From Amoebophrya sp. A120 (taxonomy: Eukaryota; Protista; Dinoflagellata): a DNA stretch of 64,000 nt. This document shows, one piece after another, positions 392 to 64,000 of the stretch; the first letter of the stretch is position 1; every line of letters starts with the position of its first letter. Below the pieces are notes generated by a model. It was given only the letters and a program-made list of their open reading frames with translations, ran no database searches and was not told the origin of the DNA. Position numbers and translations under genes: made by a program. The stretch lies in the NCBI GenBank assembly GCA_905178155.1, contig CAJINV010000006.1, positions 1,861,876-1,925,875 of the forward strand. The letters run 5' to 3'.

Positions 392-3300
392 ATGAAGCGT
401 TCCCGACAGAATGCGGGTCACGACGAGGACCAGGTCTCCTTCGTGAACAACGACACAGCTCCGGCCCAAAACGACGTCGACATGATCGATGTAAATTTCG
501 AGTTATGCTGTGCAAAAGTATCGTACTCGTATAAATGCAGGTCTTGCATTACAAATTTCTTTGTCAAGGCAAATCAGCATTACAAATTTTATTTCTCATG
601 CTGAGGAAATTTGTAATGCATTTATACAAGTATCGGATACTTTTGCAGTTCATACGAGTTCTACGAACCCTTCGAAACCGACTTCCACGGGGTCCGGCTA
701 TGCATTGCAAAAGTATCGTACTCGTATAAATGCATTACAAATTTCCTCAGCATGAGAGATAAAATTTGTAATGCAGATTGAGCTTAAGAAAGGGATTTGT
801 AATGCATGATTGCAATACGAGTACGATACTTTTGCACAGGATACCGGCAGCTTCTGAACAAATCCTTCGAGTTATTACAATGAAAAATGCCCCCTCCCCA
901 TATCAAAAAGAAAATCTGTGATGCAGATTTGTGGTTACAAATCAGCTTGGTGTTGCTAGAAGGCAAAAGATGCGGACTGAAGTGCTGCCTAGCGTGGGAA
1001 GGCCGTGCTGCTCCAGCAGGACAGGAGGCAACTGGAAGTGGGAAACAGCATGACAGATTGCCTGCAATTCAGCCCGCAGCTGCGTCTACTCTTGCTGGCT
1101 TTCTAGCAATACAAGTCGAGTTGTGTACTCAAATACAGCATCACAAATTGCGTTTCCGATATGGGGTGGAGGCTTTTTTCCCTAGGATACGAGTGGTGCA
1201 AGACGGATCCCATTTTCGATTTGACGGAAGTGACGGACGTGTGCTTATCAACTGTAAAAATGTCTAGGTCTGGAAGATTGCCAGGTCTGTCATGCATATT
1301 TTGAATGACCCATGATGTCTGTGATGCATGCCCTAGCATCACAGATTTTTAGAGGACCTTTTGATGCCTCTACCGGATGAGAAACGCCCACTCCGCGTAG
1401 CACAAACTGAACTCCTCTTGCTGGTCATGCAATACAGATTTTTTTACCTTCCAAAGACAGCATCACAAGTTGCAACCTTCCAGACCCAGACATTTTTGCA
1501 TTCGATAATGCTGCAACCAGGGCAACATCGGAACGGTGTTGAAGACTACGGATCAACTATCAAACGAAAAAAGTTCGTCACGATCACGCGTGCGCACTTT
1601 TGCAATACAAAATTTTCTGGCATGCGTAAAAATGCATCACAGGCAAACTTCATAAGGGATTTCCCTAGACGAGTTTCTGCAAAGGACGGAAAAGCTCAAG
1701 CTGTGATGCTAAAAGAATTTGTAGTGCAAGTTCGTGACTGCGGCAAACTTTTTTCTCTCCATATCAACAGGCGGGCGCTGGCGAACAACAGATACAAGGT
1801 GGCGGCAAAACTGCTTCTGGCGAGCAAAACAACAATCTTTCCTCTTCCGCCGGCGCGGCCGCGGCTGGCGCGGCCGGGGGCAGGGGAGCAACGACCACGA
1901 CGCCACAGGAAACGGGTTTATTCGGCATCACGACTGCAGTGAATCTGAAGCAGTACAAGTCCTCATTCACCTATCAAACAAGAAAAAGTTCGTCGCGATC
2001 ACTCGCCATTTTTTGCAATATTACAAACAGGAAAAGCGCTGTCATGCGGAAAAATGCATCTTCACAGTGAAATGACTTCGTGACGGATTTCATCTCTTGC
2101 GTTTGTGCAAAAATACAAGAAAAATAACGACTTGTGAAGTAGATGCCAGAAAAAAATTTCTCATGCAAAACCTGCAGTTCAGTGATCGTATGACGAACTT
2201 TTCTCACTCCATATCACCTCCAGTTTTCCCAGTATGAAGCGGTTCATGAAGAGCCACCTCGTGGCGAAGGGAGAAGAGGTATGCATTGCAAGCATGTCTG
2301 GGTCTGGAAGATGAATGCAAGTTTGTCATGCTTGTCCCGCATGTTGCCTTTTAATAAATCGGTAATGCAGGAGCAGGAAAAAAAACCTATCGGTATTGCC
2401 TGTCATGCAAAAATGCAGTTTGCTATACGGACGAAAGCGAAACTACTCCTAAATAAAAGCTCCAAAACTTGACATGCCCATGCGTAGATGCGTAGTGCAG
2501 GAGCGTGCCCTCCGCTCACAAACTAAGTCGCATCACTTTTTTCCAGAGGACCCACACATATTTGCAGTGGATAGGAGATGGTGCTGCGAGAGCCGCAAGA
2601 GAGTACTACCAGCGAGCGGACTGTCAAAGTTGAAGACCTGTTTGAGAAATTCAACACTGGATTATCCTTTGCAAAAGTATCGTACTCGTAGTAAAAATTG
2701 CAGCCATGCATTACAAATCTTTTTATCAAGGCAAAGCCGCATTACAAATTCGATTTCTCATGCTAAGGAAATTTGTATTGCAATTTATACAACAAGTATC
2801 GGATACTTTTGCACAGGACATGGATTTTTGATCAACGAAAGGCTAATCAACCTCCCGGAGGAAGTCGCCCCGCCGCTACACTCGGTACTGATTACAACAA
2901 CTGTTGTTTGTGATGCATGATAAGCTAGATCTGTGATGCTGCTGAACTACCTAAACAGGATTTTTACACTACGCGGGCAAACTTGTCATGCGAAACAACC
3001 AAAACTGGCTGATTTGTCTAGCAGATGTCCCATCATGACGATATTATTACTAACATCAGCACCTGGAGACCGCCATCCATTGGTCGCAGACGACGCCGGA
3101 GTGCCCGGAAGACGAGCGGCCCTTTTTATGCATTGCAAAAGTATCGTACAACTCGTAGTAAAATCGCAATTCTGCATGACAAATCCCTTTCTCAAGGTAA
3201 ATCAGCATGAGAAATTCCGTTTGTAATGCTGAGCGAATTTGTAATGCGATTACTACTAGTTCTAGTACGATGCTTTTGCATTTGATACTTTTACTTTTTC

Positions 3301-4285
3301 GACTATTTTCTCGGCATCGCCAAGGCGTTCAAGGATTCCTACGGCACGGTTTATCCTGATTAAAAAAGTCCCCACACCAGAGTCAAGATGGGGATTTTGC
3401 AACACAAACCTAGGAGTTTTAGGAGTCACGCATGACAAGTCTCAGTCCGTAAGGTAGTGCAAGTTAGCAAGGAAAGCCGCATCACAAATCGACCTTCTGA
3501 TCCGGTTTACAGCATCACAAATTCCAAAACACGATTGGAAATGGCTCTCATGGTGATGCGCATTACAAGTCTTCCTGTCTTTGCAAATCTGCATTACAAC
3601 TCTGGTGTGGGTACGTTTTTACCCAGGATACAGTTTATCCAAACTTCGAAGAGGAAGAGTATGTCAAAAACAGCTGCTTCCACAAGGAAATCGCCATTGG
3701 GCAGCTGGTGATATCAAATGCAAAAGTGTCTGGGTCTGGAAACTTGTGATGCTGGGTGGCGTCTCATGATGAGGCCACAAATGCTGGCTCAGCATGACAA
3801 GTTTCTGAGCTTCTAGGTGTTGCCTATTCTGCATGACAAACTGCGTTCCTGCATCACAGAAAAATGGAGCTCTTGTGTAACGTGCATGACAGATTTCAGA
3901 GTCATGCCAGACAAGCATGACAAACATGCATTCTTCCAGACCCAGACATTTTTGCACAGGATAGGTGATGCAGCAAAACAATTCATCTTCTCGGGGGACA
4001 TCTTATGCACTGCAAAAGTATCTTAATCGTATAAATGCTAAAATGCATTACAAATTTCCTCAGCATGTTGATGAGAAATGAAATTTGTAATGCTGATTTA
4101 CCTTTAAGAAAAAGATTTGCAATGCAGGATCGCACAAATTATACGAGTGCGATGTTTTTGCAGTGCATACAACTGCGGGCCCCGACGCGACAACCGTGAA
4201 GGAGAACGAGTACCGGGTGGTGTATTTGGTCAGCAACAAGACGTTTATGGAGAAAATTATGCCCCTTTTTCGGGAAGAGAAATGA
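392..4285 (+). CDS. BCP1: BCP1/BCCIP-family protein, 14 exons (12 introner introns plus one GT-AG intron at 2885-3059)
   Basis: Manual splicing gives MKRSRQ...IDVNFEFYEPFETDFHGVRQLLNKSF...DLTEVTDVCCNQGNIGTVLK...GLFGITTAVNLKQYK...TGFLINERLINLPEEVAPPLHSHLETAIHW...YFFDYFL...YPNFEEEEY...YRVVYLVSNKTFMEKIMPLFREEK*. Motif order matches BCP1/BCCIP, notably GxxxxERxxNxP. Confidence 0.88.
504..654. mobile_element. Introner, family B (inner TIR gcaaaagtatcgtactcgta)
   Basis: TAT..ATA, DR cgagt/cgagt. Confidence 0.9.
699..843. mobile_element. Introner, family B (opposite orientation to 504-654)
   Basis: DR ccggc/ccggc. Confidence 0.9.
873..1189. mobile_element. Introner, family C (inner TIR gaaaaatccccctccccatat)
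   Basis: DR cgagt/cgagt. Confidence 0.9.
1246..1507. mobile_element. Introner, family A (inner TIR aaaaatgtctgggtctggaa)
   Basis: DR gtgct/atgct. Confidence 0.9.
1558..1763. mobile_element. Introner, family D (inner TIR aaaaagttcgtcacgatcac)
   Basis: DR tcaac/tcaac. Confidence 0.88.
1972..2213. mobile_element. Introner, family D
   Basis: DR tcacc/tcacc. Confidence 0.9.
2280..2573. mobile_element. Introner, family A (diverged; also readable as GT-AG)
   Basis: DR agagg/ggaga. Confidence 0.82.
2663..2820. mobile_element. Introner, family B
   Basis: DR tggat/tggat; ends ACA. Confidence 0.88.
2885..3059 (+). other. GT-AG intron derived from a decayed family E introner
   Basis: gtactg...catcag keeps the BCP1 frame. 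Interior resembles 8124-8250, but both TIRs are gone. Confidence 0.7.
3127..3287. mobile_element. Introner, family B
   Basis: DR ctttt/ctttt. Confidence 0.9.
3352..3630. mobile_element. Introner, family E (inner TIR aaaaacgtccccac)
   Basis: DR cggtt/cagtt. Confidence 0.9.
3712..3963. mobile_element. Introner, family A
   Basis: DR ggtga/ggtga. Confidence 0.9.
4004..4169. mobile_element. Introner, family B
   Basis: DR catct/caact. Confidence 0.88.
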
Positions 4286-4788
4286 GTTTGGGCCGGTAGT
4301 GCAGCGAGTAGGAGTACCTCCCGAGGACGAAGATCAGTTCTCGTCATGCAGTTCTTGTCCATGTCATCTATGCAGACACAGAGTCATAGAAAGACAAACA
4401 GGTTTAGGTTTTCGACGGTGCAATATAGACGCCGCTGTTAAAAGAGCAGGGCTGCTTGTTGGAGGGGATCCTCTGGGTCTTGATTTGCACCAGCTGCAGA
4501 GGGTGCAGGCAATAGAAAAAGAAGCATGTATTCAACGAAAGCCAGCACGATTTGCTTTCTTGCACCTCCATAGATGTTGAGGAACAAGGCTCTTTATCAC
4601 TTCTGCCTAGTCCTTGTACAAAATCAAAACTCGAAAGAGGGCTACACGGAAATAAGTAAATGACAAGCGTCTAATATGCTGTGACCACAGCGGCCATTAT
4701 GCTTCGTGAAGAGGAGCTCCGCTGTTCAGTGAACAAAAGCAACAGCAGACAGTATTTCGCTTCCGACGTGTAGAAAGTTGCGGAAAAA

Positions 4789-5095: not shown

Positions 5096-5154
5096 AAAAA
5101 GCCAATACTTAATACTTATGGCTAGCGTTTTCTTTCTCGGTTCCAAAGAAGTCC

Positions 5155-5207: not shown

Positions 5208-5270
5208 CGTCGTGGTGAAAAAATATAAAATACTTAAAAATGGTGTGCTTCGTCATAAGTACTTAATTAA

Positions 5271-20048: not shown

Positions 20049-23000
20049 ATGCAAGACGGCCGCCTTCCCCCCTCGTCGACGACCTACTCGTATCAACGGC
20101 AAAAGTGTCTGGGTCTGGAAGAATGCAACTTTGTCATGCTTGTCTGGCATGACTCGAGAGTCTGTGTTGCATAGGCACGAAAAGGCCCTTTACTTACCTG
20201 TCATGCACGAACCAACGCAGTTTGCCATGCGGAATACGTAAGACATGGCAGCCAAAAAATTTGTCATGCGTAGCTGCGTATTGCTGTGCGTCTATCATTC
20301 ACTTTTAGCACTACAAGTTTCCAGACATCCAGGGATATTTGCAATCCATAACTCGCAGCCACGGTCCGAGCGGTCGGAACGCGCCCCGCGGTCAAACGCC
20401 AGCCGCGGGAACTCGCGGCAGACCTTATCAAATGTAAAAATGTCTGGGTCTGGAAGAATGCAACTTGTGATGCTGCATTTGGATTCCAGAAAAATCTGTA
20501 TTGCATGAGTACCAAAGGGAAGGCAATTTTTGCTCCGCTGAGAAGGCATTTGTCATGCGGAATAGGCATCGGGAAGCCCTCAGCAAATCTGTATTGCTAG
20601 GGTATGCATCACAGACATCATGGCTCATGCAAAACGTGCATGACAAGTGTCCGAATCTTCCAGACCCAGACCTTTTTACAGTTGATAGACCTCGGACGCG
20701 GGCGACAGCTACGCCCCGACGCGGCGTTTGGCGCCGGCCGGAAGCCGGGGATATGGCGTTCTCAAATGTTACAGTCTCACCTGTTACGTGATTTTGCATG
20801 CAAAATTACCTTAAGGCGCCAGATGGTCAAGCTGCTTCGCATGACAAATCTGCGAAGGGCTAGGCAGCACCTCAATCTGTGCGGAATTTGTAATGCAAAA
20901 GACGCAACTTTTCCCCATCTCAATTTTCATTTTGCCACTCTTGCATCACAAATTCACGTAACAGTTGAGAGTGTAACAGTTGAGAGCGCGACAGGGGACG
21001 AAGCGGCAACCCAAGTAGCGGGAAGGACAAGGAGTCGAAGCGCGCCGGCCTGCTACCCGAGAACGCAGCCATCATGTTCAACACGAACCAGAGGGAAAAC
21101 TTGAACCGTATTTCTGAATCCTACCACCACAACCAATCGCCGAACGACCGACGCATGCTGAACCAGGTCGAGGAGCACGTGGAAAGCCGGTTGCAGTTTG
21201 AAAAAGACCAGCATTTGAAGGAGAAGGAGAGACTATCATAAGGGAAAATCCCCCTCCCTCTATCGAGAAGGAAATTTGTGATGCTGATTTGTGACCACGA
21301 ATCAGCTCTGTTTTGCATATGGGGCAAATGGGAGCCGTTTGACGCATTGTTTCGCAGCCAATCTGTGATGCGCTTTATTTCCATACTGCAAAGGTGAAAG
21401 GTCTCTGCCATGCCTAACTGCTAGCCTGTTGCATACTCAATAAGGCATAGGAAGTGCCTCCAAGCGCCTTGTGCAAAAATACATAGCGCTGATTTCATCG
21501 TGTGTACAGTAATCCAGCAACAGAAATGTCCTGTTTTCTATGGGGCGGTGGGGGCTTTTTTTACTTTGATAGAGACTGAACCGGAAAATCCAAAACCTCC
21601 AGTTTAACCTCTCCACCGCGAGTATGGGGGTGTCAGGATCGAAATCGTCAAAATTGTCATGCACAAAATGCAACTCGAAGATTGCCTCTATTGCAGAGGA
21701 CGCACGGGAGGCAGATTGTAGTGCTGGTAAGCAGGGTCGCGAATTCTTGGGCTGCTCTTTAGCATGACAGAGGGGAGCCCAGTTGCCCTAAAGAAACTGC
21801 GTGACAGACTTGCTTTACAGACAGACAAAATCTGTGGTAGTGCGCCGCCTATAAACTGTGGGCGTCTAGTAAGTCTCACTGATAGCGGTTTTATGCATAT
21901 TTATACAAATCATTTCAACTTTGTCGATTTCGATCCTGACTTTTCCATAGCGAAAAACCAGATGGGCGGCCTGCTAACGGATATGCAGACCATCGTGCCC
22001 AACATCACCAGCGAGGAATCGCGCATTTTGCTGGACTACTTTAGCTATCAAATGCAAAAATGTCTGGGTCTGGAAACTTGTGATGCTGGTTGGCGAATCC
22101 TGAGGACGCCATAAGTGACGGCTCAGCATGACAAGTTTCTGACTTGCTAGGCGTTGCGTATTCTGCATGACAGACCGCGTTTCGGCATGACAGAAAAGTG
22201 CCGCTTTTGGGTAACGAGCATGACAGACCTTGGGGTCATGCTAGCAGAGCATGACAAACCTTCCATTCTTCCAGACCCAGACACTTTTGCAATCCATATT
22301 AGCAAGAAACTGGGCGACCAGGTACGTACAAATAAACGTAAAAGTGTAGACACAAAAAATAAATCGACACCTACTACTACTTATTCTAATTCATTAGCAC
22401 TAATAAAAGGAATATCACACGACCGAGGCCTGCGGCGTTTGTTCAACAAGAACAAGTTCAACTTCTCTACTACATCTACAACGTGTAGAGGTACTAGAAG
22501 AGGTTTTATAGCTACTTACAACTACCGAAGGAGCTTGAAAGGTTGTAGAGATGAAAAGAAGTTGAACATCAAGTTCTCCTCGTGCTTCATTATCATTGAT
22601 TTCGTTGAAGCATGGTGTCATCCTTCCGAATTGCTTCTATAATCCTGTGTGCTGCTGAGTTGCTATTAAGCCAATGCTCTGTAGTTCCTCCTGCCCTACA
22701 AAATTGTGTTGAAACCGAACGTATGAGAAGTGAAGGGAAAATGAAACAATAAACGCTCAACTTTTCATATTTTCAGCTCGAGGAAGTCCCCGATGGGGAC
22801 CAGACGCAGGCCGGCCTCACGGCTTCCCCCGCCGCGAATTCTTCTCGGCTGAACAACGGCATATCCATCGCAAAACAAGTTGTATCTAGCATAAAGCGCA
22901 TGACAAATTTTCTCAGCATGAGAGGTGGCATTTGTGATGCGGATTTGGATTTGCCTTTGACGAGAAGATTTGTAATGCATAAACGGGATGCTAGTACGAC

Positions 23001-26000
23001 TACACTTTTGCAATGCATACGGAAAGAAGTACGGGAATTTTTCGCGGGAAACCTACAACGGCTCCGACTCGAACGAACAGCAATTTCGGTCCCTGCCCGG
23101 CAGTATCAAATGCAAAAGTGCCTGGGTTTGGAAATCTGTAATGCTGAATGGTCATGAGTGAGCGCGCCTTTGAATGCAGCAGTAGTGCATGACAAGTTTT
23201 ATTTCAAGCACTTTCTCATGCTCAGTGCGCATTACAAACTGCGCTTTTTCATGACGAAATTGCGCCGCTTTTGTATGCTTTTATGCAATACAGATTTTTC
23301 TGAAGTCCTGGACACGCAATACAAAGGTTCAACCTTTATTCCAGACCCAGGGATATTTGCATTTGATAGGCAGTAAGCAGGCCCGGGCCGCCGGGGGCGC
23401 CAGCGTCGGCCCGCCGGTGCTGCACCACTTGCGCAGGCTATGAGAGTGCACAACTTCCCCCCCCTTATTTGCCATGCAAAATCTTCCCAAATCCAGTCTG
23501 TTCCTCATGGCAATCTTTGCATGACAAACAAGGTCCGAGCACGGGGACAGAGTCCCCGTGCGGCGACCTTCCGGCACTTGTCTGCGCGGTGGCACTGGGA
23601 AGGCAGGTCGCCTGCAGCTAGGTATCTCGGTGCGCCTTGCGTTCACTGGCCCGCGACGGGCCTGCGGACGCGGCCCCCTTGCTTGCGCGCACTACACTAG
23701 ACTCATTAGCCGGCCGCGCGCAAAGATAAAAGAAAAGAAGAAACTGGCGCGCGCCCGCCGGGTCTGGAGCCGGCCCCCAGGTCATGACGCGGCGACAGAG
23801 TCCCCGCACTGCCCTAGGGCCCTTCTCTGCCCCTTCCATCCTTGGCCGCGCGGTGTGCTGTCCGGGGAGTGTGCGTAGCTAGCCCTTAGGCCATGACGCG
23901 GGGACCGAGTCCCCGCGCTGGCCTAGGGCTTTCGCCCCTTGGCCGCACGGATTCACGGGGAGTGCTGCCTGCAAGCTAGCCCCTAGGCCATGGCGCAGGG
24001 ACCGAGTCCCCGCGCTGGCCTAGGGTTTTCACCCCTTGGCCGCACGGTGTCCGGGAAGCGCTCAGGCACAGCTGGTCCCTAGGCCATGACGCGGGGACCG
24101 AGTCCCCGCGCTGGCCTAGGGCTTTCGCCCGTTGGCCGCACGGTGTCCGGGAAGCGCTCACAGTTGGCCCCTAGGCCATGACGCGGGGGCCGAGTCCTCG
24201 CGCTTGCTTAGAGCTTTCGCCCCTAAGTCGGCCGCGCGGTTTCGCCGGGGAGCGCTCGCAACGAGCTGGCCCCTAGGCCATGGCGCGGGGACCGAGTCCC
24301 CGCGCTGGCCTAGGGCTTTCGCCCCTTGGCAGCACGGTGCCCGGGAAGCGCTCACAGCTGGCCCCTAGGCAATGACGCGGGGACAGAGTCCCCGCGCGCG
24401 CTGGCCTAGGCAGGGGGGGCCTTCGCCCTTTGGCCGCACGGGGTCACAGGAAGTGCTGCGAGCTAGCCCCTAGGCCATGCGCGGGGGCCGAGTCCCCGCG
24501 CTGCCCTAGGGGTTTCGCCCCGCCCTTGGCCGCGCGGTGTCCGGGAAGCGCTTACAGCTGGCCCCTAGGCCATGACGCGGGGACCGACCGGGCCCCCGCG
24601 CTGGCCTAGGGCCTTCGCCCCTTGGCCACACGGATTCACGGGAAGTGCTGCCTGCAAGCTAGCCCCTAGGCCATGGCGCGGGGACCGAGTCCCCGCGCTG
24701 GCCTAGGGCTTTCGCCCCTTTGCCGCACGGTGCCCGGGAAGCGCTCCGGCACAGCTGGCCCCTAGGCCATGACGCGGGGGCCGAGTCCCCGCGCTGGCCT
24801 AGGGCTTTCGCCCCTTGGCCGCACGGTGTCTGTCCGGGAAGCGCTCACAGCTGGCCCCTAGGCCATGACGCGGGGACCGAGTCCCCGCGCCGGCCTAGGA
24901 AGTGCTTGCGCCCCTTGGCCGCACGGTGTCCGGGAAGCGCTCACAGCTGGCCCCTAGGCCATGACGCGGGGACCGAGTCCCCGCGCGGGCCTAGGGCTTT
25001 CGCCCCTTGGCCGCACGGTGTCCGGGAAGCGCCCACAGCTGGCCCCTAGGCCATGACGCGGGGACCGAGTCCCCGCGCTGGCCTAGGGCTTTCGCCCCTT
25101 GGCCGCGCGGTGTCTGTCCGGGAAGCGCTCACAGCTGGCCCCTAGGCCATGACGCGGGGACCGAGTCCCCGCGCTGGCCTAGGGCTTTCGCCCCTTGGCC
25201 GGCCGAGGTGTGTCCGAAAGTCTGCCCGGGGTGTGTCCGAAAGTCTGCCCGGGGTGTGTCCGAAAGTCTGCCCGGGGTGTGTCCGGGGTGTGTCTGGGGT
25301 ATGTTCGGACTTTTTGCCTGGGGTGTGTTCGGGGGTCTGTCTGGGGTATGTCTGGGGTGTGTCTGGGGTCTGTCTGGGGTATGTTTATACCCCACCTGTT
25401 GGCTTTTCGGCAAAAAATTGTAGTCCGCTCGTGATTGAGGAGGATTTGCATACCCCTGACACACCCCCGAACATATTCCCGAACATACCCCTCGCCTGCA
25501 TTTTTGACCAGCTGCTGCAGTTTAGATAGTAATTCCTTCGGTTAGCCCAAATAGCCCTACACAACTCCAGTGTAGTAAACTTGTCATGCAACAGCGGTAT
25601 TCTTGCTGATGCTTTTCTTGCCGTTCATGCTATACAAATGAGGGGGAGGGGGAGCTATGTGCATTGTCATACAGGCACAAGGACTACGAGAAGCACCACG
25701 ACGACTTCCGGGACTACTTTGAGAGCGAAGTTATCGCAAGAAAAAACTGATGTGGTCTCAGTCTCAAGTTGTAATGCGCGACTGGCTTGAGACAGTTTTT
25801 TGTCATGCTGGAGATGCAATCGAAGACAGTCGTCTTTCATACGTGTTTTGCCTTGCATGTATCTGAAGCATCATAGATAATCTGTTTCTTGCTTCGTAAA
25901 AAATTTGATGTCTTTTACTGAGTCTACTGCAAATAATGCCCTTGAGACCACTGAGGAACGTTTTTCTTTGCATAGAAGTGATGCAGGAGCTGATTCAGCA

Positions 26001-29000: not shown

Positions 29001-29479
29001 ACTTCTCATGTAGTTTGGCTGTGCATTACAGGACACTCACTATAATTCCCAACCCAGCATCACAAGTTTATTCCAGACCCAGACATATTTGCATTCGATA
29101 AGCAGCAAACGGTGACAACGGACGGAGAGCGTCGAACCCCGTCCCCTTATGAGAGTGCACAACTCCCCCTCCCCCTCATTTGTCATGCAAAATACCCAAT
29201 CCACCCTTTGCCTCTCGGCACTGTTTGCATGGCAAGTTCTGGTAGCCGAAATAGCACTATACTCCAGTGCAAATCTGTATCTGTCATGCAAAACCGACAC
29301 TCTTGCTGATGCTTGTATTGCCGTTCATGCTACACAAATGAGGGGGAGGTGGGGTTGTGCACTCTCATACCCCGTCGGGCAGGTTTATTCTGGGGCAGAA
29401 GCCCACGAACTTTGGCAACAAAAGCGTGGACACGGTGTATTTGGCTGACTTGACCAGCTTTGACAGCAAGAAGGTATAG
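20049..29479 (+). CDS. Hypothetical protein (coiled-coil/low complexity); 18 introners plus a GT-AG intron at 22322-22776
   Basis: Spliced frame MQDGRLPPSSTTYSQPRSERS...RMLNQVEEHVESRLQFEKDQHLKEKERLNRKIQNLQF...LHHLRRHKDYEKHHDDFRDYFESEVMQELIQQ...YLADLTSFDSKKV* is open across all 19 junctions. Confidence 0.78.
20091..20350. mobile_element. Introner, family A
   Basis: DR actcg/actcg. Confidence 0.9.
20426..20687. mobile_element. Introner, family A
   Basis: DR gacct/gacct. Confidence 0.9.
20752..20993. mobile_element. Introner, family I (TIR tatggcgttctcaa.tgttaca)
   Basis: DR gggga/gggga. Confidence 0.85.
21234..21571. mobile_element. Introner, family C
   Basis: DR gagac/gagac. Confidence 0.88.
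21623..21949. mobile_element. Introner, family G
   Basis: DR gcgag/gcgaa. Confidence 0.88.
22046..22298. mobile_element. Introner, family A
   Basis: DR ttagc/ttagc. Confidence 0.9.
22862..23019. mobile_element. Introner, family B (diverged)
   Basis: DR cggca/cggaa. Confidence 0.82.
23104..23368. mobile_element. Introner, family A
   Basis: DR ggcag/ggcag. Confidence 0.9.
23770..25202. repeat. GC-rich tandem satellite, ~92-105-bp unit, ~15 copies, each with an internal inverted repeat
   Basis: Unit ctggcccctaggccatgacgcggggaccgagtccccgcgctggcctagggctttcgccccttggccgcacggtgtccgggaagcgctcacag. Confidence 0.95.
25206..25390. repeat. G-rich short tandem repeats
   Basis: ggtgtgtccgaaagtctgcccgg x3, then ggggtgtgtct/ggggtatgt variants. 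Confidence 0.9.
25732..25974. mobile_element. Introner, family H-like (TIR tat.caagaaaaaaac)
   Basis: DR gaagt/gaagt. Confidence 0.8.
26237..26548. mobile_element. Introner, family C
   Basis: DR gtcag/gtcag. Confidence 0.9.
26618..26879. mobile_element. Introner, family A
   Basis: DR cccct/cccct. Confidence 0.9.
27051..27303. mobile_element. Introner, family A
   Basis: DR cggga/cggga. Confidence 0.9.
27490..27752. mobile_element. Introner, family A
   Basis: DR gatcc/gagcc. Confidence 0.9.
28197..28405. mobile_element. Introner, family H
   Basis: DR gcgca/gcgca. Confidence 0.87.
28458..28736. mobile_element. Introner, family E
   Basis: DR ggtgt/ggtgt. Confidence 0.9.
28831..29100. mobile_element. 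Introner, family A
   Basis: DR agcag/agcag. Confidence 0.88.
29148..29369. mobile_element. Introner, family F
   Basis: DR cccct/ccccg. Confidence 0.9.
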
Positions 29480-41100: not shown

Positions 41101-44100
41101 CGTAGTATCTTGCATTTATGCACGACAAATCTTTTTATCAAGGTAAATCAGCATGAGAAATTCCATTTGTAATGCTGAGCGAAGTTGGAATGCGATTAAG
41201 TACTACTAGTACGATGCTTTTGCATTTCATATTGGGTGATGTTCGATTTGCTCCTCGGTGGGTTGTCCTGGCGCCGGTACTATCAAATGCAAACATCGTG
41301 ATCTGGGTCTGGCAGCTTGTATTGCTGATACTTGCATTGCGGCCTATGCCTAGCAGCTTGTACGCCATATACAGCATCAGAAGCTGTTGATTCCTCGTAA
41401 AACGCATGACAAACTTCCATCGAGCACGACAAAGAAACTGGCCCATCGCATTCCACCTGCATCACAATTTTTTCTCGCTGTCCTGCACATAGAAGCGCAT
41501 GATAAATCGTCCAGGCCCAGATCGATAAGTTTGCATTGCATAGGTACAGCCGGGCGGACATGCTGGAAAGGGAGAAGAAAGAGAAGGAAGAGAGGCGCAG
41601 GAACGGAGTTACGGCGGACGATCTCAGGAGCGGGGGGCACAACTACAGGTAACGGTTTAGGGATAGTTAGTACACCGCTCCTAGTACAGACAGATCAACA
41701 TTTAACATCGTTTCTATCTTTTTAGGTATTTTTGCATGACAGACACAGACTACATTTGCTTTGTTGAGTCACGCATGACAAGCTAACCACACAAGAAATC
41801 GGGCCAAAATCAACCTCCGCTTCTTCGATTTATCACAGGCACGGCTCGGACAAGTCGAAGCAGAAGTTTATTCTCAGCGAGAAGAAGCTCTTCGTATCGG
41901 AATTGTATAATTCGAAACTGCGAGCCGCGAAGGACTTTATCGCGCGCGACAAGATCTTTGCCGGGCCGTGGAGGGTTACTTCGGACTCCAAAAAAATGAA
42001 CAGTAGACGGTCTTTATCCAAGAGAAATTATAAAACTGCGTATAGTGTAAGTCTGTAATGCACACCAGCCATGGAACTACCACACAGTGAGTTGAGTTGA
42101 TGTTACACTTCGTCAACATGCTAGCCGGCCAGGAGATCCTACCTCATGTGTCGTGTTTTCACTGATACTAGCTGTGCATGACAGGCTTTCTGTGTCATGT
42201 ACTACAGCAGATGTGTCATGCTGTCACTCCACGACGAGACCTACACTAATCCACAGCTGTTTCTCTCTTGGATAGGCTTCCGGTCCGGCGGTACCCCTAT
42301 GGCGTTCTCAACTGTTACACTCTCAGCTGTTACATGAATTTGTCACGCAAGAATGGCAAAAGTGAAAGCGGGAAGGTTGCGCCTTTTGCATTACAGGTCT
42401 GGAGCAGATTATTATGCTATCTAGCGCGTCGAGAACTTGTCATGCGCAGAAGGCTTGAAATCGTGGAAAGTGATAGCGTTTTTGCATGACAAATTCATGT
42501 AACAGCTCAGAATGTAACGTTTGAGAACGCCATAACCCCACAGTAGCTCTTCGAGCGGCGGACTCGGGGGGAGGTTGGAATTCCATATGAATTGCAACAG
42601 TGTCCTCGTACTAGTCCTAGTGGTAATTGCATTACAAATTTTCTCAGCATGAGGAAGGCAAATTGTCATGCTGATCTACCTTGAGAGAGAGATTCGTGAT
42701 GCATAAATGCGAAGATTACTACGAGTGCGATGCCTTTGCATTGGATATTCCAAACGATGCAACAATTGATCGACGACGGCAATCCACGGTTCAGGGGCTG
42801 CGGAAAGTGGATGCCGAAGGTAGATGAAATTTATGCACAGAATTTTTTCGAGTTTTTTATGTTCTTGTACATCAAGAGCATGAGATGAATTTCATGCAAT
42901 TATTCCCTGTTGATGAACTTGAACATGAAAGTAAAAACTCCAAATAAAATAATCACAGTGTCTTACCGACGCTTTTCTAGAGATTCTGGACAAGCAGAAA
43001 TCTTCGCAGATGTGTATCGAAAGGAAAAATTCCCCCTCCCCATATCGAAAGGGAAATCTGTGATGCTCGATTTGCGTACACAAATCAGATTTGTCTTGCT
43101 GGCGAGGACTGCTGGCCCATATCGAGCCTGCGAAGACAGGTGCTGGCCTAGGCGCTCAGCATGACAGACGTCTATGCTGCAGGAGCATGAGCATGACAAA
43201 CCGCCTGCAGAATGCGGCGGAGCCGGTGGAATTGCCTTCATGCAACACAGAGACGATTTGTGGTCACAAATCAGCAACGCAAATTTTCGAAAACGTACCT
43301 TGTCAATATGGGGAGGGGGGATTTTTGTTTTTCCTTGTGATAATGTGTATCCCTTGCTCAGACGTTAATACGAATCTCACCTGTTACAGAATAAAATATG
43401 GAATGAGAAATCTGTGGTGGAGGTGGTAGATAGAAGCGCATGATGGAAATTTGATTCCTCGGCGAAATTTGTATTGCGAAAGCCGCAAGATATGGACCAC
43501 TCTGCATGTTAATATTTCTCATGCTTTTCATGCAACACGTAGTTGTAGTACACGACGAAACTCAGACATTATTTATTTACAATGTGAGATTGTAAAAACT
43601 GCTGAGCACGGTATATTGTGCTTCCAAAAGCCGGATTATCAGCGGTACATGCAGGCCTTTGAGAAGTGCGAAATAGATATCAAGTGCAAATATGTCTGGG
43701 TCTGGAAGAATGCGAGGTTTGTCATGCTTCCCTGGCATGACTAAAAAGTTTATCATGCGTGTCGAAGATGAAACCCGTTTACTTGTCATGCACAAACCCA
43801 GTTTGTCATGCGGGATAGAAGCGCAATAGTAAGCAGCGCAGATCTTTCTCGTGCTTGGCTGTGCAACATTACAGAGCATTCACTCTTCCCAAACGAGCAG
43901 TACAAGTTTCCAGACCCAGATCGATATTTGCAATGCATAATCGACTTCGGGAGGCAATTTTACTGCGACAAATTTTACCCGCGGGAGTTGCGAGCGAAGC
44001 AACGGCTTTCTGCCTCGCAATCAGCCGCACAGTTGACGACTTCTACAGGCGTAGTGGATCAAGGCTTACCTCCTGGCGATCGTGCCCGAGCGGACCAGGT

Positions 44101-47100
44101 CGTGGCCGCATGCGCCTCCAGCAAGACGACGTCTACGACCTCGCTCGGAGAACGGTCCAAATCTCAACCCACGCTAACCACTTTTACGGAGTCTGATTTA
44201 AATCCACGAACCTCGTTTCCGGTGGAAGAAATGAACATCTTCAAAAACCGAGCCATGTACAACACGGCAGGTACTAAGTACAGCTTTTTTTTTTACTAGT
44301 CTTATGGTTGCGTCTACACGACCTGCTCACAAGCGGGGGAAAAATTTGTCCCCTCCCAAAATGCTTGAGGCACCAGCTGAGATAGATGAGAACAAAGGGA
44401 GCAGCTTTTGACCTGAAACGCCATAGATGTTGTCGGTGTCTCATGAACAAACTGTCTCAAATGCATTCCACCAAAAAGCAAACAGTTGTGCTTTCCGACC
44501 TTTGATCCCCCTGGCACACTCTGCGGAAGCGCCGAGCGCTTCCGACTGTCTGGCCAAAGCCTCTTCGGCAGAGGAAATTAGGCAACTCGAGCCATAGAGC
44601 ATGGCTCATCTCCAGTTGCACCTAATAAAGGGAAATCTGAAGCGGCGCTGAAAGTAGCGCCGAAGTCGACAGCCCCCTGAAGTGTCCTTTGCCGCCCCGC
44701 ATTTACAACGACACAGGGGTGCCAAGCGACGCCTTCGGGGCCCGCTGTAGTTGGAACTTGGCACGCCGGCTTCTCGACATGAAACAGCAATATCGCCTGG
44801 TGCAACTCAATAAAAGTGCGACTTCTTGGTAGGGAAAAATTAAAAAACTTCAAATGTTGCTTGAGACTGTGACAGTTTTTTTGCAGGATATTCGAATCGA
44901 GCCATGTACAACAACACGACAGGTAAAACTTCTTCTACTTCGTCAAGCGGCGCCGGTGCTGAAAATTCTAAGAGCGATGACACCCCGAAGAAGAACGTCG
45001 GGGGCAACAGCGGTACTTCTAGTACAGCGAAAAATAATGCGCCCAATAATACGACCCCCGGTGCAGCAGCAGCGACTTCTTCCCAATCTGCGAATAGCGT
45101 CGCGGCACTATTACCCCGCGCCCTGATGAAGGAGATTCTGGACGAACCGCGTGACAAAGACGTGTTGGTCCTCACTAACGGGCGGGTGAACATTTCGCAG
45201 AGTAAGGTGATTTATGCATTGCAAATATGTCTGGGTCTGGAAACTTGTGATGCTTAAATCATACTTGTGGGCGCACTGCAATACGCAGCCAAGCATGACA
45301 AATTTTTCTTGGGCTGCTATTGTCTTTCGTTTTCGGGGGCATGGCAAACTGCGTTTTTGCAAGACAGGCAGGAGGCCTGTTGCCTGCTCGTGCATCACAG
45401 ATTCATGAGTCATGCCAGACAAGCATGACAAAGTCGCACTCTTCCAGACCCAGACATATTTGCATTTGATATGATTTGCCAGGAGCGGTTTTGCAAGCCG
45501 AGCGAGCGGGACATTCGGCGGGCTATGCATTGCAAAAGTACAATTGCAACCGTGCATTACAAATGTTTTTCTCAAGGTAAATCCGCATTACAAATTCGAT
45601 TTTCCATGCTGAGGGAGTTTGTAATGCAATAATACTTACAGGCACTACTGGTACTTTTACAATGCATACGGGCCACGCAGGAGCAGTTTTCGGATGTTCA
45701 TTTCTACGACGAGGGGCTTCCGGAATCGACGTTATCTTTTCCGTCAACCTCTTCCTCCGATCAGAACGTACCGTCCGGAGGGGGCGGCGGCCCGGTGGGG
45801 GGTGGAGGTGCTAAAATGAAAATGAAGAATGGTCCACCTCCCGGGGGGAACACCAAAGGCACAGGCGGCGGGGGCCGCGCGGACCATGATCATCCTCCTG
45901 CGGGGCGTAGCAGCAATAAGACGTCGGGTAACAACTACAACAATCACAATACCGGTGGGACAAGCAACAACAAGCGTAATAACAATAGCGACAAGAACTA
46001 CTTCTACGACAACATGACCAACAGCAACAAGATATCCCACAGAAAAAAGGAGGCAGGGCAGATTTGTAACGCAAAAATAAATACGCAGAAAAATCTGTCG
46101 TGGGCAACCCCATAGCATGCTGTTTAGGACATGCAAGACAGATTGTTTTGTCTATTTATTTTTGCATTACAAATCTGACCTGCTTGCTTTTTTCTGTGTG
46201 ATACAAGAAACAGGGCAGCACGTTTGAAGTGCTCTCGGCGAAGAAGATGCGAACGAACCACGGCGCGCAACTGCGGGAAAATTTTATCAACTGCAAAAAT
46301 GTCTGGGTCTGATGAAAGAAATCAGATGTTTGTCATGCAGCTTTTGCATCTGCTTCTGCGCGGAGGTCTGGAATACGCGCAAAGCATGAGAAATTCTTGG
46401 GAGGCTTCTTCATGCCTAGCCCGCATGAGAAATGTCCCCTCGCCCAGACAAAAACCAGCTATATTTTGCTGACCATGCAAGACAGATTTTTACCTGTTTC
46501 GGAACTCGCATGACAAGTTTGGATCCTTCCAGATCCAGACATTTTTGCATTTGATAAATTTGCAGAAAATGCAAAAAGCCCGAGCTGGTGCTGAAGATCG
46601 GGATCACAGGGAGCGGCCTGCGCAGAACAAAGATCAAGACCGAGACAATTATCAGAAGCTAGTACCCACCAGTAGAGCAGACAAAAATAGCAGTATTCTG
46701 GCCATCTACGGAGGTGGTGGTGCGAACAACGGTGCAGGAGCTACTGCGAGTACTAAAAATAGCGGGAAGCTGAAGCGGTCTTCGCAGCAGTTTTTTTACG
46801 TGGATCACGATTACAACAGTGACCGCCTGAAAGTGAATAACACCCGGCGGACTCTATCATCTGCAAAAACATCGACAGACTCGTACTAGTAGAAAAATCG
46901 CATGACAAATTTCCTATAGCATTTTTACAAATAAAATCTGTGTTGCGGATTTACTGCCTCAGGAAGAAAATTTGTAATGCATATACTGCGATCATTACAC
47001 AAACACAACTACGAGTGCGATAGTTCTTTTGCACGGGATAGACCCCGCCGCCGAGTAGCAAAAATGTAAATGGTTCTTCGTTGTACAACAAGAATGATAA

Positions 47101-48884
47101 ACGGCCAGTGCAGGAGGAGAATGACAGCGACCAATATCATCTTTGTCAACGGGAAAAAACAAACAAAATTGTGACGGATAGCCGGGATCTCGACCTTCGC
47201 CGGAAGAACAACGACCTTGCCGCCTGTAAAAAGTTTGTGCAGGAACAGGAGGGTAAAAATACAGCCGGGACGAAGACGAGCACCCGGGGAGGAGGTACTG
47301 GTACGAACAACAAGAGAACGACCCAGAACGGAAATGTAAATAACGGAAACGGGACGTCGAGCGTTGTTTCCGGAGGTGGGAGTACTTCTAGCAGCCACAA
47401 CCGAGGACGGAGTTCGGGGCCAGTGAATTGTATTAAAGATAGAGCTGCACCACGAGCAGGACCTGGTGGTCGTGCCGCCGGTGGCTGCACCACTAGGAAC
47501 AACCACAACTACGGCAACAATCGCAACCGCGGAGCTGGCGCACAACATCTATGCATTGCAAAAGTTGTATCGTACTCGTATAAATGCATTACAGAGAAAG
47601 ACGAAAGTGATTTTATTGAAGACCGCTGTTGCGGGCATAAACGGCAAGCTTTTTCAAAAAGCTGGCATTTCAAGGAAGAAGATCTTTTTTACTGAATTTC
47701 ACACAAGCACGGCCTGACTTTCAATTTGGATGTAGACAAAATGCAAATTTTCCATGCGTAAGCAAAAAAGATCTTCTCGAATGGCGTTCAAGTGGTAAAC
47801 TTCTCATGCTGTTTCTGTGAAAAAAGACTCTTATTTGCGATGGCGACATTTTGTTTTTGATGCAACCAGCGACACTGCTGCAAGGCCGCATACTTAAGTA
47901 GGTCTTACGGAATTTTCGTAAGGTTTAGGTCGACGCTTAAGGCCCCAAGATAGTAACGTTACGCAGATAGAAAGGAAAAAAGCAAGAAAGAAAAAAGAAA
48001 GCAAGCGACACCGGCGACACGAGCACCCTTAGTACGTGTGAAGCGTGTCCATCTTCGTTGTAATTACAAATTTCCTCAGCGTGAGAAATAAAATTTGTAA
48101 TGCTGATTTGCCTCACCACGATGATTCGTAATGCATGACTGCAATACGAGTACGATACTTTTGCACAGGATGACATCGAGGCAGAAGCGAAAGTTCGGAC
48201 CGGGTCGTAGTTGATCATGTGCGGCGTGACACAAAGCCGCCGCTCCGCGGGCGGGGCAATAATAATAAACATCCGGCGGGTGGTGCTGGTGCAGGGCGGA
48301 ATGGCAACAAGAACACCGGAGAGTACAAGTCGAATTGTAACTGGAGTCGGAAGGCGGACGTGACGCCGCCATATGGATGTGTCAGAGTTGAAATCGACAA
48401 AGTTGAAATAATTTGCCATGCATAAAATGGATGCCAGTTGGAACCCAGTTGCCAATTGGCGCATGACAAATTTCGGCTGTCCCTAAATCCAGTTTGTCAT
48501 GCTGTTTAGGCAAAGAAGAGCGATTTTCTCATGCTACTTTAGCAGCTCGAGCTGTAACCCCAAACAGGCTCACAATTGGCCTCACTTGCCTGCTCTGCAA
48601 CACACGTACCTCGGGTCATGCATTTTATGCATTACAAATTATTTCATTTTCAATTTTGACGATTTCAAACCTGACGCTTCCATACGCCACGGTACAATGA
48701 TAATCGGAACAAAAAGAACAGTACGAACAACAATAACTCATCTCGCGGGAGGAACAACAACAACAAAACTGCGGGTGGCACAACTGGTGGAGGTGCGACG
48801 TCGAGCAGAAACAATGGCACTGGTGTGAATAGAAACAACACGAGGCGGGCACGCAGCAGAAGCCCGCCGAGGGGGAGGAGTTGA
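35191..48884 (+). CDS. Large casein kinase 1 / tau-tubulin kinase-like Ser/Thr kinase with long inserts and a low-complexity tail; ~29 introners plus GT-AG introns (36139-36325, 41649-41838, ~42820-42980, 44271-44886/44922)
   Basis: Spliced motifs in order: LGAGAFAELYLVFD, LAAKCE, RLHKEAVF, CIPRFYGFW, FFLLEVMGRDL, IHEEGVLHRDIKPQNCML, LHLVDFGLA, FRGTAAYGSISALEGYEQTRWDDIEG, LSW, KPDYQRY. No APE motif, as expected for the CK1 group. Start codon and the 42820-43590 exons are uncertain. Confidence 0.85.
35205..35389. mobile_element. Introner, family D (right end degenerate)
   Basis: Left TIR tatggcaaggaaaaagttcgtcacg; DR ttgga. Confidence 0.65.
35405..35553. mobile_element. Introner, family B
   Basis: DR aagga/aagga. 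Confidence 0.9.
35603..35873. mobile_element. Introner, family A
   Basis: DR ccgat/ccgat. Confidence 0.87.
35938..36072. mobile_element. Introner, family B
   Basis: DR tcgat/ttgac. Confidence 0.85.
36489..36742. mobile_element. Introner, family A
   Basis: DR aagga/acgga. Confidence 0.9.
36891..37109. mobile_element. Introner, family F (opposite orientation to 29148-29369)
   Basis: DR atctt/atctt. Confidence 0.9.
37922..38248. mobile_element. Introner, family C
   Basis: DR aacca/aacca. Confidence 0.88.
38560..38713. mobile_element. Introner, family B
   Basis: DR cttcg/cttcg. Confidence 0.88.
38873..39028. mobile_element. Introner, family B
   Basis: DR atccc/atccc. Confidence 0.9.
39268..39431. 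mobile_element. Introner, family B
   Basis: DR cagga/cagga. Confidence 0.87.
39480..39689. mobile_element. Introner, family H
   Basis: DR ccagc/tcagc. Confidence 0.88.
39768..40040. mobile_element. Introner, family A
   Basis: DR gaaag/gaaag. Confidence 0.9.
40191..40402. mobile_element. Introner, family L (inner TIR gaaaaaagtgttacagttacac)
   Basis: DR gagag/gagag. Confidence 0.88.
40546..40696. mobile_element. Introner, family B
   Basis: DR cttcc/ctccc. Confidence 0.88.
40794..41038. mobile_element. Introner, family A
   Basis: DR gcaga/gcaga. Confidence 0.9.
41077..41231. mobile_element. Introner, family B
   Basis: DR ttggg/ttggg. Confidence 0.9.
41281..41542. mobile_element. Introner, family A (diverged)
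   Basis: DR ggtac/ggtac. Confidence 0.85.
42015..42274. mobile_element. Introner, family H-like (diverged)
   Basis: tatccaagagaaa...ttctctcttggata; DR gtctt/ggctt. Confidence 0.82.
42298..42534. mobile_element. Introner, family I
   Basis: DR acccc/acccc. Confidence 0.9.
42586..42747. mobile_element. Introner, family B
   Basis: DR ttcca/ttcca. Confidence 0.87.
43015..43342. mobile_element. Introner, family C
   Basis: DR atgtg/atgtg. Confidence 0.9.
43678..43939. mobile_element. Introner, family A
   Basis: DR ataga/atcga. Confidence 0.88.
45213..45471. mobile_element. Introner, family A
   Basis: DR tgatt/tgatt. Confidence 0.9.
45524..45668. mobile_element. Introner, family B
   Basis: DR cgggc/cgggc. 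Confidence 0.87.
46033..46203. mobile_element. Introner, singleton family K (TIR tatc.cacagaaaaaag.a.gcagg.cagatttgtaa)
   Basis: DR caaga/caaga; long TIR. Confidence 0.88.
46285..46556. mobile_element. Introner, family A
   Basis: DR aattt/aattt. Confidence 0.88.
46855..47040. mobile_element. Introner, family B (diverged)
   Basis: DR gactc/gaccc. Confidence 0.82.
47550..48172. mobile_element. Introner, family B, carrying a nested 469-bp insertion (47594-48062)
   Basis: Outer DR acatc/acatc; inner duplication attaca/attaca. Confidence 0.85.
48372..48684. mobile_element. Introner, family G
   Basis: DR cgcca/cgcca. Confidence 0.9.
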
Positions 48885-62000: not shown

Positions 62001-64000
62001 ACGAAAAGACGGAGCTGAAGCGGCGCAAAAACCGGGAGAAAAACGCGAAGAAGCGGCAAAGAAAGGCGGTGCAGAAGCGGGCACAAGGGAAAGCCGTACG
62101 GATCTGGGAACGGTTGCTGAACGAAGGGAATGTGGATCCGGAGTTGATCAAAAAATCGATGGAGTATTACAGTTACCTAACTCACCCGCTGGATGACGAG
62201 GACGAGGACGGGTTCTGTGACAATAACTACGAAGTAGACGGGGATCTCGGATCCGGGGCCGCGGCTGCAAAAAAGCACAACATGGTGCTGAATAAACAAG
62301 GGAGCTGCACCATGAAAACAAGCAGCTCTTCCACTTCGATGAAAGGTCAGTCTGCGTCCTCCTCCACTGCGGCAAGTCAACAGCATACTACCAGCTACCC
62401 CAACATCAACCAGAAGAAACCCGCAGCTCCCAACAGCACCCCCGCCCTGCCGAAGATTTTCAGCGTGTTCGCCAACAGTGCAAAATTGCTGCCTCCGGAA
62501 ATCGAGCAGGAGTTCCTACGACAACTGAAGACGTTGGAAGAAGACTACAACGAGAAATGCGCGCATTTGATATCCTGTGCAAAAGTATCGTACTCGTATT
62601 GCAATCATGCATTTACAAATCTTTTTCTTGAGGTAAATCGGCACTACAAATTTTATTTCTCATGCTGAGGAAATTTGTGATGCATTTATACGAGTGCGAT
62701 ACCTTTGCAATTCATATTTGAACGTCCGCACCAATAACCCAGATGACGCGACTTTACTCCAGATGGAAACTAATCGAAAGCTGAAGGCGCTTTGCGAGCA
62801 GCTGGACATCAAAATGGAAAAGGCGGACGGGAAGGGGTATGCGGTTGAAGAGGTCTGGGAGGATTGGGAAGAAGAAGAACGTGACATAAACGGAGACCTT
62901 CTCCACGGCTCCTGCAACAGTCCGGCGGACAGCGGTGCTGAAGCGGAACAATTTTACGACGACGGATTCTTCCACGGACAGGAACACGCAGGTAGATCAG
63001 CAGGACAACATTCACGCCACTTTACTGACCACGAGCAAACAAACCTGAGCGGCGTAAAGGGAAAGCGGAACGCTTTTCCAGGCGGAGGTGGTGGCTCATC
63101 TTTCCGTGTGAGAAACAAGAATGAAGATGATTACAATACCCAACACGAACAAGTAGACCACATTGTTCAGGAGCTGGAAAATAATAACGGGTTTGCAAGT
63201 GGTAAGAGGCGCGGCGTTGGTGCTGACAACAAGCTCCACCGCGGCCAGAAGGACCCTTTTCAGCAGCAATATCAAATTGTGAAGCACGGTAGCGGCCTTG
63301 GGGCAGAAGATAATTTTCCGAGGCTATCGGTAAACAGTACAAGTAATCATGCCGATGAGGAGCGCGAAGTTGACAATTTTCACTACTATGAGCATTTTCA
63401 GCACCTAAACCGAAGTTCCACTGGGAACAGTAACAGCTCCCCGGCTTCTTCTTCTACTCGAAAAACTACTCCAGGCGGACTCTGCTCCAGCACTGCGCCC
63501 AACGCGATTGATGTGAACCGCGCCCGCGTTGACGGCTTGCTGAGTCAGAAGACCACACAGGACAAGCTCCGCAGTTTGCTGTATGGCGGGCACAGCAGTT
63601 GGGGGAAGAGTGACTGGTGGGACGCGGAAAGGAAGCTGCGGCGGAAGGAATCGTTTCAACGCGATATGCAACGAGACAAGGATGATCTCGAGTCGATCAG
63701 CAGTAGCAACACGGCTTCTACTACGTCTGGGCTTGTTCAGCGATATGGATCATTTCATCCCGCCGAACAAGAGAAGTCAAACAGAACATCCGCTGCTGAA
63801 GGGTCTTATTTTTTCCCCGGGGCGGCTGCATCCGGAAATAAAAGTGGAAAGAACTCGGGAGGTCCGAATTCATCGCCCCCTTGCTATCCGAGTTATAGTA
63901 CTAGCGGTAAGCCAACGGAGGAATCCTTGCCACCATTACATCCGAATTTGCAAAGAAGTACTAGTGGCCCACCTAGTCGTCCACTTGGCAGCCCGATGCT
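56078..64000 (+). CDS. Very large low-complexity (G/S/Q/N/H-rich) hypothetical protein running off the window end; 3 introners plus an insertion at 59090-59939
   Basis: Long ORF segments 56078-56658, 57269-59089, 59940-62570 and 62722-64000 join in frame when the elements are removed. No recognisable domain. Confidence 0.7.
56659..56964. mobile_element. Introner, family G
   Basis: DR caggt/caggt. Confidence 0.9.
57012..57263. mobile_element. Introner, family A
   Basis: DR ccttc/ccttc. Confidence 0.9.
59090..59939. mobile_element. 850-bp insertion with an introner-like left end and gtacacggtt/aaccgtgtac motifs, between 55-bp direct repeats
   Basis: Starts tatcacaagaaaaag; no right TIR. Flanks 59035-59089 and 59940-59994 differ at 1 position. 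Confidence 0.8.
61073..61138 (+). repeat. In-frame 33-bp tandem duplication (DADRKQTDTTL x2)
   Basis: gatgctgatcgtaagcagactgacacaactctc twice. Confidence 0.9.
62571..62716. mobile_element. Introner, family B
   Basis: DR tttga/tttga. Confidence 0.9.

Follow-up and report, generated by a model that had tools for sequence, protein, structure and literature searches.

Introners of Amoebophrya sp. A120 are removed from RNA together with five flanking nucleotides, consistent with a fixed cut register

The 64,000-nucleotide (nt) stretch of the Amoebophrya sp. A120 genome considered here (the window; contig CAJINV010000006.1, positions 1,861,876 to 1,925,875) is a gene-dense region whose reading frames are interrupted by short elements that start with TAT, end with ATA, carry terminal inverted repeats (TIRs), and lie between 5-bp direct repeats (DRs). 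On the + strand the interrupted genes include a BCP1-like gene (504..4169), a gene with 18 elements (20091..29369), and a CK1/TTBK-family kinase locus (35603..48684). A strict scan (an exact 5-bp DR, TAT…ATA with at most one mismatch, a TIR score of at least 8, and a length of up to 700 bp) detects 63 elements in the window and 0-2 per window in 20 Markov-simulated windows. A looser scan gave 83 candidates; removal of eight that were doubtful or mis-paired and addition of eight from the strict scan and an orphan-end search left a final set of 83, with 17207-17427, whose DR has two mismatches, as a would-be 84th. Thus, the original prediction, which spoke of about 84 TAT…ATA elements between 5-bp DRs, mostly 135-340 bp long, holds: 81 of the 83 fall within this range, the remaining two being 623 and 2,233 bp. 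The summed length of the elements is 22,327 bp, or 35% of the window.

All 83 elements start with TAT, and A is present at positions 11-13 in 69-75 of them. The DR is exact in 61, has one mismatch in 17, and has two or more mismatches in 5. The elements fall into 9 multi-copy clusters and 10 singletons, a tally that depends on the threshold; many families do exist, as had been claimed, and the claimed number of about 12 is one such threshold-dependent figure. Members of a family are present in both orientations within + strand genes, and at least 73 of the 83 elements have matches over at least 80% of their length in 128 other loci. These loci, which come from the metagenome JACKZZ01 and carry the same families, serve as an independent set; none overlaps the window, and their contigs may not be A120 itself. 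A symmetric scan of the loci yields 275 elements, 130 of which can be oriented by reading frame. The first nine bases of the elements, in window and loci together, take few variants that are common across families, and are the same at both ends of one copy in only 53 of the 275. As predicted, most elements offer no GT-AG pair: one is possible in only 6 of the 83, in any register that removes the element plus 5 nt (element+5). Removal of the element and one DR was also predicted to restore the frame, and on the + strand the median open frame across junctions is indeed 447 aa if element+5 is removed versus 147-152 aa if element+0, +3, +4, or +6 is removed. About eight elements lie outside any long reading frame. 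An Rfam search of the window gave 0 matches.

An exon of the kinase locus (39029-39262; 78 aa) is 100% identical to P0001, a protein from Amoebophrya sp. A120; identity to the A25 relative is 73%. Since both the organism and the element anatomy are those of Farhat et al. 2021 (PMC7789003), the system is already known: the elements are the introners of that study, seen in their type organism, as had been supposed. A120 introners are described as having an inverted repeat of TAT, 7 variable nt, and at least three A's, with a DR of 3-5 nt (5 bp in the legend to Fig. S19), and the non-canonical introns of A120, with a mean of 240 nt, are supported by RNA-seq against the genome (PMC7789003). The TAT repeat, the 3-5-nt DR, the removal from RNA without GT-AG, and the families are all matched here. 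The A120 families of Gozashti et al. 2025 (PMC12130899) likewise consist of TIR DNA elements, which measure 150-340 bp and whose ends are mostly non-canonical. The additions made by the present analysis are modest: a fixed cut register, designated −1/+4, and an internal GCATNACAA motif common to the elements.

RNA joints were taken from two regions, 300-20299 and 21572-29480. Run X9 consists of raw RNA reads, and X1 and X3 were taken as RNA by guess; the library is unstranded, with strand assigned from reading frames. The first region contains at least 15 joints, those listed being 11 across elements and 4 across canonical GT-AG introns. Nine of the 11 are in the BCP1-like gene, whose 12 introners lie on the + strand at 504-654, 699-843, 873-1189, 1246-1507, 1558-1763, 1972-2213, 2280-2573, 2663-2820, 3127-3287, 3352-3630, 3712-3963, and 4004-4169. 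Each of these nine joints is crossed by 511-750 raw X9 reads, all of which skip element+5, and the fitted X9 depth over 5 bins is 782× in exons and 0 inside introns; the other three introners (873, 1558, and 3352) are accounted for by contig arithmetic. The spliced frame is continuous, and one exon matches Pfam BCCIP (E 4e-5, under the curated cut-off). Precise joints are found even at 2280-2573, which has a broken DR (AGAGG/GGAGA; 750 raw reads), at 4004-4169, which has a mismatch at DR position 3 and retains the left base (540 raw reads), and at the 2663 element, which has unpaired ACA ends (607 reads).

In the second region at least 15 joints come from one 4,504-nt X1 contig; those listed comprise 14 elements, all removed as element+5, and one canonical intron. 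The elements belong to the single + strand gene of 18 introners, which start at 20091, 20426, 20752, 21234, 21623, 22046, 22862, 23104, 23439, 25732, 26237, 26618, 27051, 27490, 28197, 28458, 28831, and 29148; the first four are accounted for by arithmetic. The longest element (23439-25671; 2,233 bp), which is full of a GC-rich satellite of ~92-96 bp, is skipped as element+5 like the others (2,238 nt). About 14 copies of this satellite, together with 23- and 11-bp repeats, occupy 23840-25384. Over 21572-29480, X10 has 0 reads and X11 has 37 partial reads, and X9 has no depth on genes after ~4700. With the four above and the three in the BCP1-like gene, contig coordinates account exactly for the removal of seven elements beyond the listed joints, so that 32 of the 83 elements are RNA-supported (25 listed joints plus 7 by arithmetic), the raw reads being from one gene and one run. 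Both element orientations are spliced, as are elements whose DR is not intact, over lengths of 135-2,233 bp. The precise excision from RNA that had been predicted is therefore observed, as removal of element+5, and it accounts for proteins that stay unchanged although transposons take up a third of a gene-dense region.

The kinase locus, with 28 elements on the + strand, has a Pkinase Pfam match, and the nearest solved structures are TTBK1/2, then CK1. P0001 maps over 35557-46659 and contains the elements from 35603 to 46285; those at 46855, 47550, and 48372 lie beyond it. Within P0001, 22 of 25 elements are removed as element+5; the protein disagrees at 46033, and it skips 43015 and 43348 jointly. 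The latter two stand back to back in 43015-43615 with the middle DR in common (three DR copies), and are annotated as a single 606-nt intron. In an alignment to the A25 orthologue, 6 of 22 junctions fall inside aligned blocks, where they can be examined, and all 6 are gap-free. The claim that removal rebuilds BCP1 and CK1 motifs thus agrees with the continuous BCP1 frame and its BCCIP match, and with the Pkinase match.

The original prediction left room for removal from DNA as well as from RNA. Elements could be eliminated in some stage or nuclei, like the internal eliminated sequences of ciliates, and RNA would then copy the edited DNA. The TIR and DR anatomy would suit such a process, as would an element-free DNA copy at 52232-52416 (+ strand), which is 93-100% identical to the exons (50686-51702) around the elements at 50719, 51046, and 51393 and has one DR copy per junction; this copy was more probably templated by spliced RNA than left as a pre-insertion duplicate. 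It lies in a region that is duplicated at 53161-53468. Run X5, whose kind is not on record and which is read as DNA from its even ~30× depth over intergenic DNA, argues against elimination: it has 0 at all 15 listed joints, and its contigs run through the elements at 1558, 1972, 11904, and 12141. (Contigs drop rare variants, and X5 is one sample, with counts that are lower bounds, from which the assembly itself may have been made.) Furthermore, Farhat et al. validated such introns by RNA-seq versus the genome (PMC7789003). Removal at the DNA level is disfavoured by X5, and is considered very unlikely.

A hairpin combined with DRs is a substrate for artefactual template switching by reverse transcriptase. 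The elements have both features, and joints could in principle arise by switching across the hairpin between the DRs, the genes being pseudogenes or spliced at nearby GT-AG sites. This explanation deserves hardly any credence: joints are exact despite the broken DRs at 2280, 11904, and 12141; the fitted depth inside elements is ~0; the conserved BCP1 and kinase frames require removal, with all examinable A25 junctions gap-free; and a nearby GT-AG pair is available in only the six elements mentioned above.

Where the two DR copies differ, RNA tells which copy is retained, and the 5' cut can be bounded, counting from the first T of the element. Raw reads allow a cut at −4..0 at 1246, −4..−1 at 2280, and −2..0 at 4004. 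Single contigs allow −5..−1 at 21623 and at 29148, −1..0 at 22862, −2..+1 at 27490, −1 at 11904, and −3..−1 at 12141. All 25 joints permit a cut at −1, the sole value that they have in common, which is bounded from below by 22862 and 11904 and from above by 2280, 21623, 29148, 11904, and 12141. The elements that define this register (+ strand, one contig) are 22862-23019 (DR CGGCA/CGGAA, left position 4 retained) and 21623-21949 (DR GCGAG/GCGAA, right position 5 retained, likewise 29148-29369); at 36489, 39480, and 42015, too, the base retained in P0001 is the left one. The two elements without an intact DR at 11904-12094 and 12141-12403 (+ strand, one X1 contig each) have true ends 3 nt earlier than the DR-based call gives. 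They at first resembled element+2, and these 2 of the 25 joints count as element+5 only after the ends were re-set by TIR alignment, once the RNA was known; the −1 donor holds either way. Cutting them at −1/+4 gives GT-AG and GT-AA, respectively. Two of the 83 elements, 2280-2573 and 11904-12094, read GT-AG in the −1/+4 register, and both are spliced there. The joints are consistent with an intron of the form N-TAT…ATA-NNNN, with one base before the element and four after, and this register needs no intact DR.

The case for a single register has weak points. Its lower bound comes from one non-canonical site (22862, one contig) and the GT-AG site 11904, the raw-read sites alone permit −2 or −1, and in no family do both orientations offer informative sites by which a mirror register would be excluded. 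In favour of the register, all nine predominant non-canonical pairs of A120 in Table S4 of Farhat et al. start N-T (PMC7789003). The legend to Fig. 3 of that article gives splice sites as variable relative to the hairpin, with an unknown border, whereas here 25 of 25 joints fit −1/+4. Similarly, in the 21 of 58 A120 rows available from Gozashti et al. 2025, splice sites are mixed, the automated calls of target-site duplications (TSDs; 2-5) and of splice recruitment vary, and no fixed register appears. A literature search, beyond whose reach lay most subscription papers and all figures, found no publication stating such a register.

How, then, are the introners removed? The favoured explanation, given about an even chance, is that the U2-type spliceosome removes them in a relaxed version of its usual activity. 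In this mechanism, a DDE transposase, for which the IS3/IS481/Ginger/integrase group is a plausible origin, would insert the elements with a 5-bp target duplication. Because both ends begin with TAT, either orientation offers N-UAU on the 5' side and AUA-NNNN on the 3' side. Removal of element+5, the step observed for the 32 elements, restores the coding sequence base for base. To carry it out, the spliceosome would read U+2/A+3 as it reads its own GUA donors and would ignore +1 and −2/−1. The TIR stem may help by joining the ends, and the 3' cut may be placed at a set distance, with a branch A at −7 as a possible reference point; fixed branch distances have been reported in Entamoeba.

The donor TA (U+2/A+3) is invariant in 83 of 83 window elements and 130 of 130 elements from the loci, and GTA is the donor in 10 of 10 canonical introns of the window (6 RNA-supported, 4 from P0001). 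Compared with U2-type introns, the elements thus share the donor core and lack the GT…AG ends. The original prediction held that structure or a TIR-binding factor, not the U1/U2 consensus, marks the ends; GT-AG is indeed unused, but U+2/A+3 is canonical-like and there is no overall sign of selection on the hairpin. Ends other than TAT number 0 at donors vs 8 at acceptors in the window (p 0.007) and 1 vs 13 in window and loci pooled (p 0.002). The A at −7 is present in 83 of 83 window elements (after the ends were re-set) and 129 of 130 elements from the loci, one exception in 213, as well as in 9 of the 10 canonical window introns. The consensus of U12-type donors is RTATCCT, and C occupies element position 4 in 51 of the 83 and position 5 in 26. 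The minor small nuclear RNAs (snRNAs), which for U12-type introns are U11, U12, U4atac, and U6atac, are reported absent from A120, which keeps nearly all spliceosomal proteins and the U2, U4, U5, and U6 snRNAs; U1 snRNA was not found, and no transposase is reported (PMC7789003). A precedent for a relaxed spliceosome is provided by Fritillaria borealis, whose introns derived from miniature inverted-repeat elements have TIRs and TSDs, lack GT-AG, stand beside conserved GT-AG introns, and are spliceosomal (PMC11282704, PMC13326754). However, the Fritillaria ends are biased (AG-AC, AG-AT) and its U1 is conserved, whereas the A120 elements are unconstrained in their first and last two bases, and no U1 was detected in A120.

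Other observations weigh against a relaxed spliceosome. There is no G preference at +1 (A/C/G/T 19/22/20/22; G in 20 of 83), and AG at −2/−1 occurs in 11 of 83 versus 8.3 expected (p 0.21). The 10 canonical introns of the same genes are strictly GT-AG, which is hard to attribute to a single active site. Taken by themselves, the independent loci give no significant difference between donor and acceptor ends (1 vs 5, p 0.22), and conservation of TAT/ATA would be expected from transposition alone as well. The −7 branch A was not replicated, being present in 10 of 28 blind-predicted canonical introns (background 0.38); these are the GTA-donor introns among 61 motif-free of 114 predicted, the predictor having recovered 5 of 10 known introns exactly. 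Homologue searches from loci L058 and L023 (proteins up to 2,000 aa) gave no match. According to the predicted pairing, the donor and the −7 A lie in a helix ~70-80% of the time, and no lariat, circle, or transposase was observed.

The same features bear on a separate, non-spliceosomal RNA pathway, which would read the TIR stem or the UAU/AUA end, cut at −1/+4, ligate the exons, and free the intron as a circle or linear molecule. This is a serious possibility, held at rather below even. Indifference at +1 and −2/−1, while canonical introns remain GT-AG, would fit such a pathway, as would the identical cutting of the 2.2-kb copy and the failure to find U1 snRNA in A120 (PMC7789003). The stem is also suggestive: positions 9-13 are predicted to be paired at 0.86-0.93 (one example element has z −2.4), and at 12141 the 3' cut tracks the stem rather than the nearest ATA (one contig). 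However, TIR positions 4-7 are paired in only 30-56 of the 83 elements, versus 78-79 for positions 11-13, the unpaired ACA ends at 2663 are tolerated, and the invariant donor letters equal those of the canonical donor. Nor does the transcribed stem have an overall excess of G·U over A·C (216 vs 194, p 0.30, or 70 vs 59 when counted by element) among 76 window and 127 loci elements, seven window elements outside long frames having been excluded; one of four sub-bins gives 95 vs 64 (p 0.017, uncorrected).

A model for such a pathway is provided by the nonconventional introns of euglenids, which resemble the A120 elements in fixed-offset terminal pairing, TSD-like repeats, and wide range of lengths (PMC11282704, PMC11170887). 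They differ in having CAG/CTG at +4..6/−8..−6 and Y|R borders, where the A120 elements have TAT/ATA at +2..4/−7..−5 and no border bias. The euglenid introns were shown to leave as circles (PMC11282704); for the A120 elements, no back-joint (circle junction) is present among the RNA joints listed. Cutting by a tRNA-endonuclease at a bulge-helix-bulge was rejected as a model, since the DR copies are identical to each other rather than complementary.

The elements are short and non-coding, and are likely to be non-autonomous DNA transposons. All clusters contain the GCATNACAA-type motif, which occurs at 8.5 per kb inside elements vs 0.6 outside and is present in 80 of 83 window elements and 263 of 268 elements from the loci. 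Copies close to the left end are in reverse orientation and those close to the right end in forward orientation, a layout as expected for putative subterminal binding sites of one protein; no mention of the motif was noticed in the text of Farhat et al. The TA…TA ends and the 5-bp duplication point to the IS3/IS481/Ginger/integrase group, which agrees with the integrase-like A120 family 38 of Gozashti et al. 2025. IS3EU and GingerRoot have TA..TA termini and IS481EU has TNT..AYA (PMC10045372), but the TSD is usually 6 bp for IS3EU and ~4, 15, or 25 bp for IS481EU, as opposed to 5 bp here, with a single 5-bp copy at empty sites; this relationship is a lead only. Copies within canonical introns or between genes are truncated, whereas exonic copies retain both ends. 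The canonical GT-AG intron at 2885-3059 (+ strand) encloses a decayed element interior, 83% identical over 121 nt to 28458. No transposase was found in the window or among the seven long candidates of the 275 loci elements, and the TIR pattern has 0 occurrences in viral contigs. A 2,459-bp "element" in locus L032 with a 415-aa frame proved to be mis-pairing around a host exon, and has no Pfam hit. That neither the excision machinery nor the transposase has been identified, as first stated, agrees with the literature except for A120 family 38 of Gozashti et al. 2025 (PMC12130899), which has an integrase-like open reading frame; none was found in the elements here.

The remaining elements are spread along the window. 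Nine (+ strand) lie at 4789-5095, 5521-5787, 5861-6185, 6417-6681, 6750-7002, 7320-7573, 7627-7905, 7976-8279, and 8337-8660, none of them among the RNA joints listed for 300-20299. The first sits 3' of the BCP1 stop; an X1 contig departs from the window sequence at 4783 and continues for 295 nt, which fits removal of 4789-5095 from the 3' untranslated region. The gene at 5478-8909 has a diverged copy at high depth in X1, with the same variants at about half depth in X5, which suggests a more highly expressed paralogue elsewhere. The gene at 10678-15353, with a depth of 570-1,050 in X1, nearly none in X3, and none in X9, is possibly stage-specific. The element 16857-17118 and the candidate 17207-17427 lie outside a long reading frame. 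Six elements are located at 30930-31220, 31299-31507, 34152-34423, 34471-34663, 34754-35032, and 35405-35553. The segment 34120-34706 duplicates 28799-29412, with both elements (34152 and 34471) at identical sites; thus, these two element pairs are not independent insertions. At 47550-48172, an element of a ~150-bp family carries a ~470-bp nested insert between ATTACA repeats, with no TIR seen in the insert. On the + strand, four more elements are present at 50277-50437, 50719-50999, 51046-51316, and 51393-51657, and three at 56659-56964, 57012-57263, and 62571-62716. A 55-bp direct repeat (59035-59089 and 59940-59994) surrounds an insert of ~850 bp, which at 59090 has an introner-like start (TAT, 7 nt, and an A-run) and lacks a matching right end. 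Exon lengths between neighbouring elements cluster at 33-92 nt, and none is 93-137 nt (65 gaps <400 nt), a possible effect of chromatin spacing on insertion.

The A120 nucleus may even possess a second route that ignores GT-AG, reads N-UAU, measures four bases past the inverted end, and so erases 5-bp-duplicating insertions in either orientation, with one GCATNACAA-binding protein mobilizing or marking all the families; this proposal is tentative and, on balance, doubtful. A separate pathway, if it exists, would resemble that of the euglenids although the lineages are unrelated. A spliceosome able to work without G+1 and without AG would instead extend the range known for its active site. If a single −1/+4 rule is true, the "unprecedented variety" of A120 splice pairs would reduce to one signal, N-T…N-N, the variety being that of the target-site sequence. 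Tens of thousands of introns would have their gene models corrected by such a rule, which would also pinpoint where a lariat branch or circle joint would lie.

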